Part shown: piece after piece, positions 8,518-51,425 of the stretch
How the letters are laid out: each line of letters opens with the position of its first letter
How positions within the stretch are numbered: position 1 is the stretch's first letter
Sequence record: LR746311
Length of the DNA: 64,000 nt
Strand: one strand, 5' to 3'
Source of the DNA: Shigella phage vB_SsoM_113
Position numbers and translations under genes: made by a program
Notes under the pieces: model-generated
Databases searched by the model: none
What the model was told of the DNA's origin: nothing
The model's input: the letters and a program-made list of their open reading frames with translations, nothing else

Positions 8518-8843
8518 TGACAGATACGCAACTTTTCGAATATCTTTATTTTTCGCCAAAAACTATTAAAAATAAATTGGTGAATCATTTTGAAATTTTG
8601 GCAAATAACAACGTCTTGAGCGAATTTTATCCCAAGCAATACAAATTACAAAAAGGTGTATTCAAAGGATGCAGAGTTTTGTGCACTGCTCCTAATGCAA
8701 GATTAATGAATAAAATTCCATATTTTACCATGGAATTTATTGATGGACCATTTAAAGGATTAATTACTCAAAGTTTAATGGCATATGATTCTGAGCCATT
8801 TTTAATTAAAGAACAATCTTGGATAAAATTATTTTCTAATTGA
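8514..8843 (+). CDS. hypothetical protein (about 110 aa)
   Basis: ATGATG start overlapping the preceding stop; the track ORF begins upstream at 8463. Confidence 0.5.
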   Translation: MMTDTQLFEYLYFSPKTIKNKLVNHFEILANNNVLSEFYPKQYKLQKGVFKGCRVLCTAPNARLMNKIPYFTMEFIDGPFKGLITQSLMAYDSEPFLIKEQSWIKLFSN

Positions 8844-8849
8844 GGTTAT

Positions 8850-9212
8850 ATGAAAGCATATCAAATTCTTGAAGGCACACATAAAGGTACTATTTATTTT
8901 GAAGATGGTATTCAAGCACGAATTATTGTCTCTAAAACCTTTAAAGTGGACTCTTTTGTAGACCCAGAAATTTTCTACGGTTTGCATGCCCGTGAAATTG
9001 AAATTGAGCCACAGCCTACAGTTAAAATTGAAGGTGGTCAACACCTGAACGTTAACGTTCTGCGTCGTGAAACTCTGGAAGATGCAGTTAAGCATCCGGA
9101 AAAATATCCGCAGCTGACCATCCGTGTATCCGGTTATGCAGTTCGCTTTAACTCTCTGACTCCGGAACAGCAGCGCGACGTTATCGCTCGTACCTTTACT
9201 GAGAGCTTGTAA
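8850..9212 (+). CDS. autonomous glycyl radical cofactor (GrcA/YfiD-like)
   Basis: C-terminal 60 aa [60 protein letters not shown] matches recalled E. coli GrcA with glycyl-radical motif RVSGY; host-like codons in 3' half. Confidence 0.85.
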
Positions 9213-9433
9213 TGGCAAAGATAATTATTGAAGGTTCTAAAGATGTGTTAAATGCTTTCGCCGAGTGGTTTAGTAATTCAGGCGAACAGCAATTTAATGA
9301 AGCGTGGACCATGGGTGATATTGATGGAATTTATCCTACGACAGAAATTTCTGTTCAAGGATATGGCATTCATGAACCTATTCGTTTAGTTGAATATGAT
9401 TTATGTACTGGTGAGGAAGTCAAATATGATTGA
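9212..9433 (+). CDS. hypothetical protein (73 aa)
   Basis: ORF track; tightly packed. Confidence 0.5.
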   Translation: MAKIIIEGSKDVLNAFAEWFSNSGEQQFNEAWTMGDIDGIYPTTEISVQGYGIHEPIRLVEYDLCTGEEVKYD

Positions 9434-17883: not shown

Positions 17884-17885
17884 TA

Positions 17886-17909
17886 GGGAGCCTTCGGGCT
17901 CCCTTTTTT
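17886..17909 (+). terminator. rho-independent terminator
   Basis: GGGAGCC-TTCG-GGCTCCC followed by TTTTTT. Confidence 0.8.
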
Positions 17910-17933
17910 ATTTCAAAATTTTTTCACAAAACG

Positions 17934-17963
17934 GTTTACAAGCATAAAGCTTTATGGTACTAT
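17934..17963 (+). promoter_or_regulatory. T4-type early promoter (repeated cassette)
   Basis: TTTTTTCACAAAACGGTTTACA ... TGGTACTATACAACTATCAACT, near-identical to cassettes at 3151 and 45311. Confidence 0.7.
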
Positions 17964-27178: not shown

Positions 27179-27652
27179 ATGTTATTGACTGGCAAATTAT
27201 ATAAAGAAGAAAAACAGAAATTTTATAACGCACAAAACGGTAAATGCTTAATTTGCCAACGAGAACTAAATCCTGATGTTCAAGCTAATCACCTTGACCA
27301 TGACCATGAATTAAATGGACCAAAAGCAGGAAAGGTACGTGGATTGCTCTGTAATCTTTGCAATGCAGCGGAAGGTCAAATGAAACATAAATTTAATCGT
27401 TCTGGCTTAAAGGGACAAGGCGTTGATTATCTTGAATGGTTAGAAAATTTACTTACTTATTTAAAATCCGATTACACCCAAAATAATATTCACCCTAACT
27501 TCGTTGGAGATAAATCAAAGGAATTTTCTCGTTTAGGAAAAGAGGAAATGATGGCTGAGATGCTTCAAAGAGGATTTGAATATAATGAATCTGACACTAA
27601 AACACAATTAATAGCTTCATTTAAGAAGCAGCTTAGAAAGAGTTTAAAATGA
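27179..27652 (+). CDS. 49: endonuclease VII (Holliday junction resolvase)
   Basis: 157 aa; Cys-rich N-terminus CLICQRELNP...HLDHDHELNG matches recalled T4 gp49. Confidence 0.9.
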   Translation: MLLTGKLYKEEKQKFYNAQNGKCLICQRELNPDVQANHLDHDHELNGPKAGKVRGLLCNLCNAAEGQMKHKFNRSGLKGQGVDYLEWLENLLTYLKSDYTQNNIHPNFVGDKSKEFSRLGKEEMMAEMLQRGFEYNESDTKTQLIASFKKQLRKSLK

Positions 27653-29466
27653 CAATTGAAAAAGAAATTGAAGGATTGATTCATAAAACTAATAAAGACC
27701 TTTTAAACGAGAATGCTAATAAAGATTCTCGTGTTTTTCCAACTCAACGGGACCTTATGGCTGGTATTGTGTCTAAACACATTGCCAAAAATATGGTCCC
27801 GTCTTTTATTATGAAAGCGCATGAAAGCGGAATTATCCATTTCCATGATATTGATTATTCCCCTGCTCTTCCATTTACTAATTGCTGTTTAGTAGATTTA
27901 AAAGGAATGCTTGAGAACGGATTTAAGCTCGGTAATGCGCAGATTGAAACTCCTAAATCAATCGGCGTTGCTACTGCAATTATGGCACAAATTACTGCAC
28001 AGGTTGCTTCTCATCAATATGGCGGAACGACTTTTGCGAATGTAGATAAAGTACTTTCTCCTTATGTTAAACGCACCTATGCAAAACATATTGAGGACGC
28101 AGAAAAATGGCAAATCGCTGATGCGTTGAATTATGCCCAATCTAAAACAGAAAAAGACGTATACGATGCATTCCAAGCTTATGAATATGAAGTAAATACT
28201 CTCTTTAGTTCAAACGGACAAACGCCTTTTGTAACAATTACATTTGGTACGGGAACTGACTGGACTGAACGAATGATTCAGAAAGCAATTCTGAAAAATC
28301 GTATTAAAGGTCTTGGTCGCGATGGGATAACTCCTATTTTCCCTAAGCTTGTTATGTTCGTTGAAGAAGGTGTTAATCTTTATAAAGACGATCCAAACTA
28401 TGATATTAAGCAGCTTGCTCTAGAGTGTGCAAGCAAAAGAATGTATCCTGATATTATTTCAGCTAAGAACAATAAAGCTATCACCGGTTCATCTATTCCT
28501 GTTTCTCCAATGGGTTGCCGTAGTTTCTTGAGCGTATGGAAAGATTCGACTGGTAATGAAATTCTTGATGGACGTAATAATCTTGGCGTTGTAACACTGA
28601 ATCTTCCTCGCATTGCGTTAGATTCTTATATTGGAACACAGTTCAATGAACAGAAATTTGCTGAATTGTTCAATGAACGAATGGATTTGTGTTTTGAAGC
28701 TTTGATGTGTAGAATTAGTTCCTTAAAAGGAGTTAAAGCGACTGTTGCTCCTATTCTTTACCAAGAAGGTGCATTTGGGGTTCGTCTTAAACCTGATGAC
28801 GACATAATTGAGTTATTTAAAAACGGTAGAAGTTCAGTGTCCTTAGGATACATTGGTATTCACGAATTGAATATTCTTGTCGGTCGTGATATTGGACAGG
28901 AAATTTTAACTAAAATGAATGCTCGTCTTAAGCAGTGGACTGAAAGAACCGGTTTTGCTTTTAGCTTGTATTCTACTCCTGCTGAAAACCTGTGCTATCG
29001 CTTCTGTAAACTTGATACTGAGAAATATGGAAGTGTAAAGGATGTTACTGATAAAGGCTGGTACACTAACAGTTTCCATGTTTCAGTAGAAGAAAATATC
29101 ACTCCGTTTGAAAAGATTTCTCGCGAAGCCCCATATCATTTCATTGCGACAGGTGGTCACATTTCTTATGTTGAACTTCCTGATATGAAAAATAACCTAA
29201 AAGGTCTTGAGGCTGTATGGGATTATGCTGCACAACATTTAGATTATTTTGGTGTTAATATGCCGGTAGATAAATGTTTTACATGCGGAAGTACCCATGA
29301 AATGACTCCTACTGAAAACGGGTTTGTTTGTTCTATTTGTGGAGAAACTGATCCTAAAAAGATGAACACAATAAGAAGAACTTGTGGCTATTTGGGAAAT
29401 CCGAATGAACGCGGATTTAATCTTGGAAAAAATAAAGAAATCATGCATAGGGTTAAACACCAATGA
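27649..29466 (+). CDS. nrdD: anaerobic ribonucleoside-triphosphate reductase
   Basis: 605 aa, continuous (no intron); C-terminal Zn-ribbon and glycyl-radical region; matches T4 NrdD length. Confidence 0.92.
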   Translation: MTIEKEIEGLIHKTNKDLLNENANKDSRVFPTQRDLMAGIVSKHIAKNMVPSFIMKAHESGIIHFHDIDYSPALPFTNCCLVDLKGMLENGFKLGNAQIETPKSIGVATAIMAQITAQVASHQYGGTTFANVDKVLSPYVKRTYAKHIEDAEKWQIADALNYAQSKTEKDVYDAFQAYEYEVNTLFSSNGQTPFVTITFGTGTDWTERMIQKAILKNRIKGLGRDGITPIFPKLVMFVEEGVNLYKDDPNYDIKQLALECASKRMYPDIISAKNNKAITGSSIPVSPMGCRSFLSVWKDSTGNEILDGRNNLGVVTLNLPRIALDSYIGTQFNEQKFAELFNERMDLCFEALMCRISSLKGVKATVAPILYQEGAFGVRLKPDDDIIELFKNGRSSVSLGYIGIHELNILVGRDIGQEILTKMNARLKQWTERTGFAFSLYSTPAENLCYRFCKLDTEKYGSVKDVTDKGWYTNSFHVSVEENITPFEKISREAPYHFIATGGHISYVELPDMKNNLKGLEAVWDYAAQHLDYFGVNMPVDKCFTCGSTHEMTPTENGFVCSICGETDPKKMNTIRRTCGYLGNPNERGFNLGKNKEIMHRVKHQ

Positions 29467-29933
29467 ATTATGATAGATTTTATCCTTGTGATTTTGTGAA
29501 TGGCCCTGGATGCAGGGTCGTTCTTTTCGTTACAGGTTGTTTGCATAAATGCGAAGGGTGTTATAATAAATCAACATGGAATGCTAGAAATGGCATTCCA
29601 TTCACTGGTGAAACACTGGAACAATTAATTGAATGTTTGAATAATGATTATATAGAAGGATTAACTATAACTGGAGGAGACCCTCTCTATCCTGATAACC
29701 GAGATGTTGTTCATTGCATTGTTCAAACAGTAAAAAATCTTTATCCAAATAAAAGCATTTGGTTGTGGACAGGATATAAGTTTGAGGATATTAAACAACT
29801 AGAAATGCTTAAATATGTTGATGTTATTATTGATGGGAAGTATGAGAAAAATCTTCCGACTAAAAAGCTGTGGCGAGGATCAGATAATCAGCGACTTTGG
29901 TCAAATACCGATGGGGTGTGGAAACATGATTAA
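29463..29933 (+). CDS. nrdG: anaerobic RNR activating enzyme (radical SAM)
   Basis: 156 aa; Cys-rich radical-SAM-type N-terminus CLHKCEGC; overlaps nrdD stop. Confidence 0.88.
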   Translation: MNYDRFYPCDFVNGPGCRVVLFVTGCLHKCEGCYNKSTWNARNGIPFTGETLEQLIECLNNDYIEGLTITGGDPLYPDNRDVVHCIVQTVKNLYPNKSIWLWTGYKFEDIKQLEMLKYVDVIIDGKYEKNLPTKKLWRGSDNQRLWSNTDGVWKHD

Positions 29934-49997: not shown

Positions 49998-51425
49998 GTG
50001 GTAGAAATTATTCTTTCCCATCTCATATTTGATCAAGCTTATTTTTCAAAAGTTTGGCCATATATGGATTCAGAATATTTTGAAAGTGGTCCAGCTAAAA
50101 ATACATTCAAATTAATTAAATCTCATGTTAATGAATACCATAGCGTTCCATCTATTAATGCGTTAAATGTTGCATTAGAAAATAGTTCATTTACTGAAAC
50201 AGAATATTCTGGTGTAAAAACACTTATTTCAAAACTGGCCGATTCGCCAGAAGACCACAACTGGTTAGTAAAAGAAACAGAAAAATATGTTCAGCAAAGG
50301 GCGATGTTTAATGCTACGTCTAAAATAATTGAAATTCAAACTAATGCTGAGCTTCCTCCAGAAAAACGAAATAAGAAAATGCCAGATGTAGGTGCTATTC
50401 CTGACATCATGCGCCAAGCATTATCAATTTCATTTGATAGTTACGTTGGTCATGATTGGATGGATGACTACGAAGCACGTTGGCTATCTTATATGAATAA
50501 AGCTCGTAAGGTTCCATTTAGACTCAAAATTCTAAATAAAATTACTAAAGGTGGAGCTGAAACTGGAACACTGAACGTTTTAATGGCTGGTGTTAACGTC
50601 GGTAAGTCATTAGGTCTGTGTTCATTGGCAGCAGATTATTTGCAGCTCGGACATAATGTTCTTTACATTTCCATGGAAATGGCAGAAGAAGTCTGTGCTA
50701 AGCGTATTGATGCTAATATGCTTGATGTTTCTCTTGATGACATTGATGATGGGCATATTTCTTACGCTGAGTATAAAGGAAAAATGGAAAAATGGCGTGA
50801 GAAATCTACTCTTGGACGTTTAATCGTTAAACAGTATCCTACTGGTGGAGCAGACGCTAATACATTCAGGTCTCTCTTGAATGAATTGAAGCTCAAGAAG
50901 AATTTTGTTCCAACAATCATTATTGTTGACTATCTGGGTATTTGTAAATCTTGCCGCATCAGAGTTTATTCAGAAAATAGTTACACAACTGTTAAAGCTA
51001 TCGCAGAGGAATTGCGTGCTCTGGCTGTTGAAACCGAAACTGTTCTTTGGACCGCAGCACAGGTTGGTAAACAAGCTTGGGACTCTTCTGATGTTAACAT
51101 GAGCGATATTGCAGAATCTGCCGGCCTTCCAGCAACAGCCGATTTTATGCTTGCGGTCATTGAAACCGAGGAGCTAGCAGCTGCTGAACAACAACTCATT
51201 AAGCAAATCAAATCACGATATGGTGATAAGAATAAATGGAATAAGTTTTTGATGGGTGTTCAAAAAGGAAATCAAAAATGGGTAGAAATTGAGCAAGATT
51301 CTACTCCAACCGAAGTGAACGAAGTAGCAGGTTCACAGCAGATTCAGGCTGAACAGAATCGCTATCAAAGAAACGAATCCGCTCGAGCTCAGTTAGATGC
51401 TTTGGCAAATGAATTAAAATTTTAG
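49998..51425 (+). CDS. 41: replicative DNA helicase gp41
   Basis: 475 aa; GTG start; Walker A GVNVGKS; matches recalled T4 gp41 N-terminus MVEIILSHLIFDQAYFSKV. Confidence 0.95.
   Translation: MVEIILSHLIFDQAYFSKVWPYMDSEYFESGPAKNTFKLIKSHVNEYHSVPSINALNVALENSSFTETEYSGVKTLISKLADSPEDHNWLVKETEKYVQQRAMFNATSKIIEIQTNAELPPEKRNKKMPDVGAIPDIMRQALSISFDSYVGHDWMDDYEARWLSYMNKARKVPFRLKILNKITKGGAETGTLNVLMAGVNVGKSLGLCSLAADYLQLGHNVLYISMEMAEEVCAKRIDANMLDVSLDDIDDGHISYAEYKGKMEKWREKSTLGRLIVKQYPTGGADANTFRSLLNELKLKKNFVPTIIIVDYLGICKSCRIRVYSENSYTTVKAIAEELRALAVETETVLWTAAQVGKQAWDSSDVNMSDIAESAGLPATADFMLAVIETEELAAAEQQLIKQIKSRYGDKNKWNKFLMGVQKGNQKWVEIEQDSTPTEVNEVAGSQQIQAEQNRYQRNESARAQLDALANELKF

Follow-up and report, generated by a model that had tools for sequence, protein, structure and literature searches.

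How does a gene of a strictly lytic phage come to carry, within a single reading frame, DNA that is identical to a gene of Escherichia coli? The question is raised by an open reading frame (ORF) at positions 8850-9212 of a stretch of 64,000 nucleotides (nt) from Shigella phage vB_SsoM_113 (sequence record LR746311), here called the window, which comes from a T4-type phage of the genus Tequatrovirus. The ORF is the T4 gene vs.6 (Y06I) and encodes a small phage protein of the GrcA/YfiD type. A preliminary description of the locus, made from the sequence alone, had taken it for a phage-like 5' half fused to a host-like glycyl-radical domain. Our analyses lead to another history: vs.6 is very probably an old, full-length phage homologue of grcA in which positions 9028-9202 have been replaced by E. 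coli grcA DNA. The replaced tract is the structured glycyl-radical domain of the protein, in 57 complete codons. The parts of the gene, with PFL standing for pyruvate formate-lyase and 6OWR for the structure of E. coli GrcA, are the following.

8850-9212, + strand: vs.6 (Y06I) coding sequence, phage homologue of GrcA/YfiD; an ATG-to-TAA ORF of 120 amino acids (aa).
8842-8845, + strand: Shine-Dalgarno sequence GAGG, 4 nt 5' of the ATG and overlapping the vs.7 TGA (8841-8843); read from the sequence.
8850-9027, + strand: phage-type 5' part, codons 1-59 and base 1 of codon 60; from GC content and profile comparison.
9028-9202, + strand: tract identical to E. coli grcA, 175 nt, with complete codons 61-117 corresponding to GrcA residues 68-124; from alignment.
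9066-9068, + strand: Arg73 codon CGT, where two common E. coli grcA alleles differ (CGT/CGC); from allele comparison.
9132-9134, + strand: Gly95 codon GGT in RVSGYAV, the predicted glycyl-radical site; from the sequence and alignment to 6OWR and PFL.
9203-9212, + strand: phage-type 3' end, consisting of base 3 of Glu118, AGC TTG and TAA; from comparison with E. coli and related phages.

Over positions 9028-9202 the window shows unbroken identity, 175 of 175 nt, to the grcA allele of E. coli strain SK1144, a common allele, and for the slightly longer segment 9028-9212 the identity to grcA is 98.4-98.9% throughout the 5,426 complete E. coli genomes searched. The identity ends sharply on both sides. 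Immediately 5' of 9028, the phage and E. coli genes are scarcely alignable as DNA. Past 9202, the final three codons read GAG AGC TTG in the phage and GAA AGC CTG in E. coli, a matter of two synonymous differences, and related phages differ among themselves at these codons; beyond the stop codon, the E. coli and phage sequences are unrelated. As expected of gene conversion, the boundaries at 9027/9028 and 9202/9203 are abrupt and have diverged homologous sequence on either side.

The composition of the gene changes at the same place. The GC content is 34.8% in 8850-9027 and 49.1% in 9028-9202, with a mean of 34.5% for the whole window, and only 0.66% of the 175-nt segments across the 64 kb reach the value of the tract. 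At third codon positions, GC rises from 22% in codons 1-59 to 42% in codons 60-118. The 3' half uses the codons CTG (five times), CGT (four), CCG and GGT (three each) and CGC (two), and CTT, TTG, CGA, CCA and CCT are among those of the 5' half. The preliminary description had taken the last 60 codons for essentially the C-terminus of E. coli GrcA, written in host-preferred codons and with a raised GC content. This was accurate: residues 61-120 are identical to E. coli GrcA 68-127, with the motif RVSGYAVRF at aa 92-100, and two of the analyses that it had proposed, a nucleotide alignment to E. coli grcA and a plot of GC and codon usage across the ORF, gave 100% identity over 175 nt and a sharp break of composition inside the ORF.

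Identity of this degree goes far beyond what protein conservation would produce. We back-translated the 58 residues in 200,000 simulated trials and found that, with the codon usage of this phage, the resulting DNA was 78.7 +/- 2.2% identical to E. coli with a maximum of 89%, and with the usage of enterobacterial grcA genes 84.5 +/- 2.2% identical with a maximum of 94%. A match at all 58 codons would have a probability of 1e-28 under phage usage and 1e-17 under enterobacterial grcA usage; in the phage, 57 of the 58 match. Cronobacter phage D6b and three IMG/VR loci (L106-L108) encode the same 60-aa C-terminus with DNA that is only ~83% identical to E. coli. In comparison with a first set of host genes, other T4-like and T5-like phages had exact runs of at most 17-56 nt in common with any host grcA, and the phage studied here 173-175 nt; this set was without the grcA of Klebsiella pneumoniae, and the corresponding patch of Klebsiella phages, described below, surfaced after that gene was added. 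The near-identity at synonymous sites is thus far outside protein constraint, as gene conversion would have it. Of the two findings that would have spoken against a capture of host DNA, uniform composition and an identity explained by protein conservation, neither was made, the observed 100% standing against an expected 79-85%. The suggestion that the 3' half is captured host DNA is therefore borne out by the 175-nt identity and by the break of composition within the ORF.

The similarity of the tract to host genes follows host phylogeny, being 98.4% to Escherichia sp., 91.9% to Citrobacter and 87-91% to other enterobacteria, and E. coli grcA itself lies at a conserved ung-grcA-eamB locus in all the E. 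coli genomes. Because the tract has host composition and grades with host phylogeny, the sequence data place the direction of transfer as from host to phage.

An equivalent patch with another donor is found in Jiaodavirus, whose vs.6 (in Klebsiella phages; L005:801-1163, L118 and L258:521-883) occupies the same gene position and shows a still stronger break in GC content, from 0.36 (5' part) to 0.57 (tract). Here the same domain is covered, but the donor is K. pneumoniae grcA, and the tract has diverged somewhat more from it: the identity is 95.4% for phage vB_VIPKPNOM02 and 96.6% for L118 over the first 174 nt, and 93.4-94.5% for the Jiaodavirus tracts over all 183 nt, with exact runs of 107 nt (vB_VIPKPNOM02) and 140 nt (L118). 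Of L118, whose gene is frameshifted in the 5' part, the tract alone was used. The host gene was taken from gut-metagenome loci (L178-L180; L178:401-784), which have an ung-grcA-srmB context and are identical, or 99.5% identical, to K. pneumoniae records over 1,181 nt. The left junction is as in T4, AAA ATT followed by GAA GG..., and the right end lies ~20 nt earlier. Of 183 positions, 21 distinguish the genes of the two hosts; at every one of these the window agrees with E. coli, and at 19 of them L118 agrees with K. pneumoniae. Compared with the K. pneumoniae tract, 80 phage records fall at 95-99% and 57 at 90-95%, all of them Klebsiella phages among the matches listed, and the E. coli phages fall at 84-88%. 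Since Jiaodavirus carries an equivalent patch from K. pneumoniae grcA, the radical domain has been replaced from host to phage at least two times independently, and in both cases the donor was the host of the phage concerned.

The form of the gene in the absence of a recent host patch can be seen in other relatives. The homologues in Karamvirus, Slopekvirus, Krischvirus, Pseudotevenvirus, Gualtarvirus and T5-like phages are the same two-part protein with the RVSGYAVRF domain, and the DNA of their radical domain is 72-87% identical to the nearest host grcA in the set, with exact runs of 17-35 nt. In comparison with host sets confined to GrcA proteins resembling those of E. coli and Klebsiella, none of these groups had a tract from its own host, and none exceeded 87%. 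In two T4-like IMG/VR contigs from human-associated metagenomes (L114 and L116), the last ~90 nt of the vs.6 homologue resemble Haemophilus grcA (L087, L082) and are far closer to it than are those of the sister contigs L112, L115 and L117. The host-like informative sites of the two contigs are clustered (permutation p ~0.001-0.015), which is suggestive of a third host-to-phage patch.

Among phage records, identity to the E. coli tract is bimodal: 251 records are at 99% or above, 391 at 95-99% and 3 at 90-95%, and the rest are at or below 87.4%. The carriers include T4, RB69, RB51 and many isolates of Tequatrovirus and Mosigvirus. The Yersinia pseudotuberculosis phages fPS-2 and PYps14T have a vs.6 that is 98-99% identical to the copy in the window, the E. 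coli-type tract included. In Escherichia phage vB_Eco_Some (L177:301-742), the host-like tract contains an out-of-frame tandem duplication of 79 nt (CCATCCGTGTATCC...CGTACCTT repeated), which alters the annotated C-terminus and may be a real rearrangement or an assembly error. The age of the patch can be read from the divergence between the two genera, given here by segment as identity to RB69, Tequatrovirus-Mosigvirus divergence at third codon positions and number of fixed differences.

vs.7: identity 66%, third-position divergence 41%, 98 fixed differences.
vs.6, 5' part: identity 89%, third-position divergence 21%, 10 fixed differences.
vs.6, tract: identity 98.9%, third-position divergence 4.8%, 0 fixed differences.
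vs.5: identity 71%, third-position divergence 55%, 62 fixed differences.
vs.4: identity 68%.

The third-position divergence of the tract between the genera is no larger than that within each genus (4-6%), and the phage variants of the tract are mostly private changes around the E. coli sequence. The age of the patch thus differs from that of its flanks, a further mark of gene conversion, and because the tract has no fixed differences and its flanks have 10-98, it is much younger than the split of Tequatrovirus and Mosigvirus. The segment 8690-9027, which takes in the 3' end of vs.7 together with the 5' part of vs.6, is 85-95% identical between the genera, with flanking genes at 66-72%; its low divergence suggests an older exchange between the genera or an unusual constraint.

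For the E. coli-type tracts, a single conversion in one Tequatrovirus or Mosigvirus ancestor, followed by spread from phage to phage between the genera during co-infection, has in our judgement a chance only somewhat below even. It would fit the 5' junction, identical in both genera, as well as the star-like diversity around the E. coli allele, the similarity of within-genus tract diversity to that of neighbouring sequence, the retention of the E. coli tract by members isolated on Yersinia, and the lowered between-genus divergence of the wider segment at ~8690-9027. With 10 fixed differences in the 5' part and none in the tract, on the other hand, the exchange between phages would have to be confined almost precisely to the tract, which looks contrived, and Jiaodavirus shows that an independent conversion has occurred. 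A weaker point against a single event is that both E. coli alleles of codon 73 are present among the phages, at a site that is hypervariable: the codon is CGC in RB69, Killian and L096, CGG in L098 and, with a change of Arg to His, CAT in T4. We had considered the CGT/CGC difference as evidence of several conversions and downgraded it, given four states of the codon among 13 phages. Phage EC.W14-2, whose tract is 100% identical and whose record has 116 kb, was likewise considered as an independent conversion in a T5-sized phage and rejected, as it is a Tequatrovirus with a short record.

What was replaced depends on the identity of the gene as a whole and of its 5' half in particular. The preliminary description noted that a YfiD homologue had been reported in T4, and this is the gene found here: vs.6/Y06I. 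Its DNA is 100% identical to vs.6 of Escherichia phage YUEEL01 and differs from T4 vs.6 at 4 of 353 nt over 8850-9202 (~99% identity). The protein matches phrog_1209 over its full length (E = 5.4e-62, profile positions 1-120 of 121), which together with its position in the denV-regB cluster identifies it as the orthologue of T4 vs.6 (PHROG 1209). With 120 aa, it is close in size to the 127 aa of E. coli GrcA. Its C-terminus is an RVSGYAV radical domain, found by Pfam Gly_radical over aa 61-101 (66.9 bits) and homologous to PFL ~697-759; the PFL chains 1H16 and 1CM5 match aa 58-120 (PFL 697-759) at E = 6e-26.

The 5' half is more elusive. Alone it has no Pfam match, and pairwise BLASTP of the phage and GrcA N-terminal halves gives no match. 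We nevertheless rejected the conclusion of non-homology drawn from the blank BLASTP, as a profile-profile comparison (hhalign) of nine diverse phage N-terminal halves with ten host GrcA N-terminal halves resolved the matter, aligning them over the whole length with a probability of 94.4% and E = 8.4e-8. Since the profiles match where pairwise BLASTP is blank, the homology is a remote one. In phmmer, aa 22-120 align to the GrcA structure 6OWR with E = 7e-41. The N-terminal half is thus homologous to GrcA residues 1-60, and we read the 5' part as a diverged homologue of GrcA's N-terminal half, which is disordered. In E. coli YfiD, residues 1-60 are disordered and are required for binding cleaved PFL and for efficient installation of the radical; the structured part, residues 61-127, is folded like PFL 693-759 and contains the radical glycine (PMC8683613).

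The preliminary description was therefore right about the host-derived 3' half but not about the fusion, the 5' half being itself a homologue of GrcA. That an unrelated phage ORF gained a host glycyl-radical domain by illegitimate recombination, giving a new chimeric gene, is in our view very unlikely. The sharp break of composition at 9028 and the blank searches with the 5' half would suit such an event, but they are outweighed by the whole-length homology of the N-terminal halves and by the presence of the same two-part protein in T4-like and T5-like phages free of host-like DNA. The 3' end of the tract, moreover, lies inside the ORF, and the last three phage codons and the stop/start overlap with vs.5 are kept. 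Because the N-terminal half is GrcA-homologous and both ends of the patch are inside the ORF, we favour replacement within an existing gene over fusion.

The replacement would have come about by recombination of the phage with host DNA during infection, with points of exchange in the two best-conserved blocks of the protein, the right one being ARTFTE. Exchange in conserved blocks would explain why the ends of the patch lie within the ORF and why the start, the N-terminal half, the last three codons and the overlap with vs.5 are intact; ends in conserved blocks are also as expected of recombination between diverged homologues.

For the function of the protein there is a precedent in T4. Y06I of T4 and YfiD of E. 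coli are the two proteins whose role as PFL spare parts has been validated: once it has received its glycyl radical from the PFL-activating enzyme, the protein forms a complex with O2-cleaved PFL and restores its activity (Wagner et al. 2001, as summarized in PMC8683613). The role of the glycine, GrcA Gly102 and PFL Gly734 being the equivalents of Gly95, is from the same source (PMC8683613). By analogy, we infer with high confidence that the protein encoded in the window has the same PFL-rescue function as T4 Y06I. PflA would place the radical on Gly95, the protein would dock on oxygen-cleaved PflB, and activity would be regained; the output of fermentative acetyl-CoA, formate and ATP may thereby be kept up in micro-oxic conditions after the shut-off of host expression.

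The preliminary description had also offered the phage's own NrdD, the class III (anaerobic) ribonucleotide reductase, as a client of the protein, correctly placing its gene ~18 kb downstream: nrdD is at 27649-29466, ~18.4 kb downstream of vs.6, and nrdG is at 29463-29933. The rescue of NrdD by the vs.6 protein, in place of host PFL, is nevertheless highly improbable. NrdD is indeed a glycyl-radical enzyme, with a Gly_radical domain at aa 481-586, it is encoded with its activase NrdG in the same 64 kb, and an early comparative paper proposed a role for the vs.6 protein in nucleotide metabolism (PMC1524935). The radical domain, however, is that of host GrcA and of the PFL/GrcA type, with the match to PFL 697-759 given above, and it does not resemble the C-terminus of NrdD: BLASTP against the phage's own NrdD gives E = 2.4, and the motif RVSGYAVRF stands against RRTCGYLG. 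T4 Y06I was validated on oxygen-cleaved PFL (Wagner et al. 2001, as summarized in PMC8683613), and the domain is overwritten by each host's grcA, not by nrdD sequence. The nrdD copy of the window is one uninterrupted ORF of 605 aa, overlapping nrdG on its 3' side. In the T4 reference, nrdD carries a group I intron; the copy here appears to be without it.

Two explanations would do without any transfer of DNA, and neither is credible. One is that protein constraint and convergence on host-preferred codons produced the identity; the domain is strongly conserved, and enterobacterial grcA genes share a codon bias and are 87-92% mutually identical in the tract, but the simulated identities top out at 94% even with the codon usage of those genes, a match of all 58 codons has a probability of ~1e-17, phages encoding the identical segment are only ~83% identical as DNA, phage identities leave a gap between 87% and 95%, and the bases at the 21 E. 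coli/K. pneumoniae differences side with each phage's own host, at 21 of 21 here and 19 of 21 in L118. The other, a merging of host reads into the phage contig during assembly, has for it only that the tract is identical to host DNA and is contradicted by 642 phage records of independent deposition, among them the T4 and RB69 reference genomes, in which the same junctions occur.

Several observations nonetheless weigh against our interpretation of the gene and its patch. The score of the protein against the TIGR04365 spare_glycyl equivalog model is 151.3 bits, below the cut-off of 170, with E. coli GrcA scoring 234; the shortfall comes from the diverged N-terminal half. The protein differs from the validated T4 Y06I at two residues. 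The third-position diversity of the tract within genera (4-6%) resembles that of the 5' part of the gene, and the Tequatroviruses isolated on Yersinia keep an E. coli-type tract, from which it follows that exchange with the host is infrequent and that a new host does not quickly bring a rewriting of the tract. The GrcA radical domains of E. coli and K. pneumoniae are distinguished by two residues only, so the patch could be neutral, and the exact match to the host domain may be either selected or merely tolerated. The recombination mechanism, finally, is deduced from the anatomy of the tract.

At the locus, the last A of the vs.6 TAA is the first base of the vs.5 ATG (9212-9214), the vs.5 ORF being at 9212-9433. 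The gene order, denV-vs.8-vs.7-vs.6-vs.5-vs.4-vs.3-regB, is syntenic with YUEEL01 and T4; over the segment 8400-9700 the identity to YUEEL01 is 99.4%, and matches at 94% or above occur in hundreds of T4-like phage records.

Within the window the tract stands alone. In a megablast search of the whole 64 kb against the 5,426 E. coli genomes, it was matched in every genome and was the only stretch with a match in E. coli chromosomes generally, and positions 25001-64000 had no match in any of these genomes. A 52-nt match at ~17901-17952 (96%) was found in one E. coli chromosome only, that of strain BE104; the surrounding segment, 17884-17952, has a terminator-like hairpin (AGGGAGCC TTCG GGCTCCC, then a T run) followed by a promoter-like GTTTACA...TACTATAC. 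Positions 588-1089 hold six tRNA genes (Ser, Thr, Met, Tyr, Asn and Arg), and positions 839-995 match the tRNA arrays of E. coli plasmids of ~75-110 kb at 83-90%, with no chromosomal match. In 175-nt segments, only four spots reach the GC content of the tract: the tract itself, 577-1102, 1597-1800 and 50996-51197. The first of the other three is the tRNA cluster, and the last lies inside an ORF of 475 aa and has no E. coli match. The GC-rich segment at 1597-1800 is outside the predicted tRNA genes and has neither a match in Rfam at the gathering threshold nor an E. coli match.

The nearest known system is T4 Vs.6/Y06I (T4p117), which has the same position, a length of 120 aa, 98-99% DNA identity and the same host-like tract. 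It differs in having E33 where V33 is found here and H73 where R73 is found here; codon 73 of the window, unlike that of T4, keeps the host residue, and the last 60 aa thus equal those of E. coli GrcA. With E. coli GrcA (6OWR), the protein shares a layout in which the structured glycyl-radical domain comes after an N-terminal half. The N-terminal halves of the two are ~25% identical, that of the phage being seven residues shorter, and the phage gene is in a lytic early-gene cluster, whereas E. coli grcA is between ung and eamB. Another host-derived metabolic gene, cyanophage psbA, has been described as exchanging sequence with host alleles in patches. As in that case, the phage copy of a host metabolic gene recombines within the gene with the host copy; unlike psbA, vs.6 has a single block of 175 nt that is one structural domain, in a strictly lytic phage. 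The gene, its spread over T4-like phages and its biochemical function are already known. In full-text searches of the literature, we found no paper on the host patch at the DNA level, its domain-exact extent, its youth or the parallel from K. pneumoniae, and a prior mention is possible.

To our knowledge, T4-type phages are usually held to share essentially no DNA sequence with E. coli, and they degrade host DNA. The tract of vs.6 indicates that a strictly lytic phage does recombine with the chromosome of its host to leave fixed products, and that a single protein domain can be swapped in this way. A further idea, which we put forward tentatively and think rather unlikely, is that the spare part is kept matched to the host, grcA repeatedly overwriting the radical domain and selection favouring an exact fit to PflB and PflA. 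If so, the radical domain would be that of E. coli in E. coli phages, that of K. pneumoniae in Klebsiella phages and possibly a Haemophilus-like one in Pasteurellaceae phages, and host DNA would have a standing entry point in the one part of a T4-type genome that has usable homology to the host chromosome. The tract could also mark the historical host of a phage lineage, the Tequatroviruses isolated on Yersinia still having the E. coli patch. If the match is selected, vs.6 would be a clear example of how a phage adjusts a metabolic spare part to the enzyme of its host.

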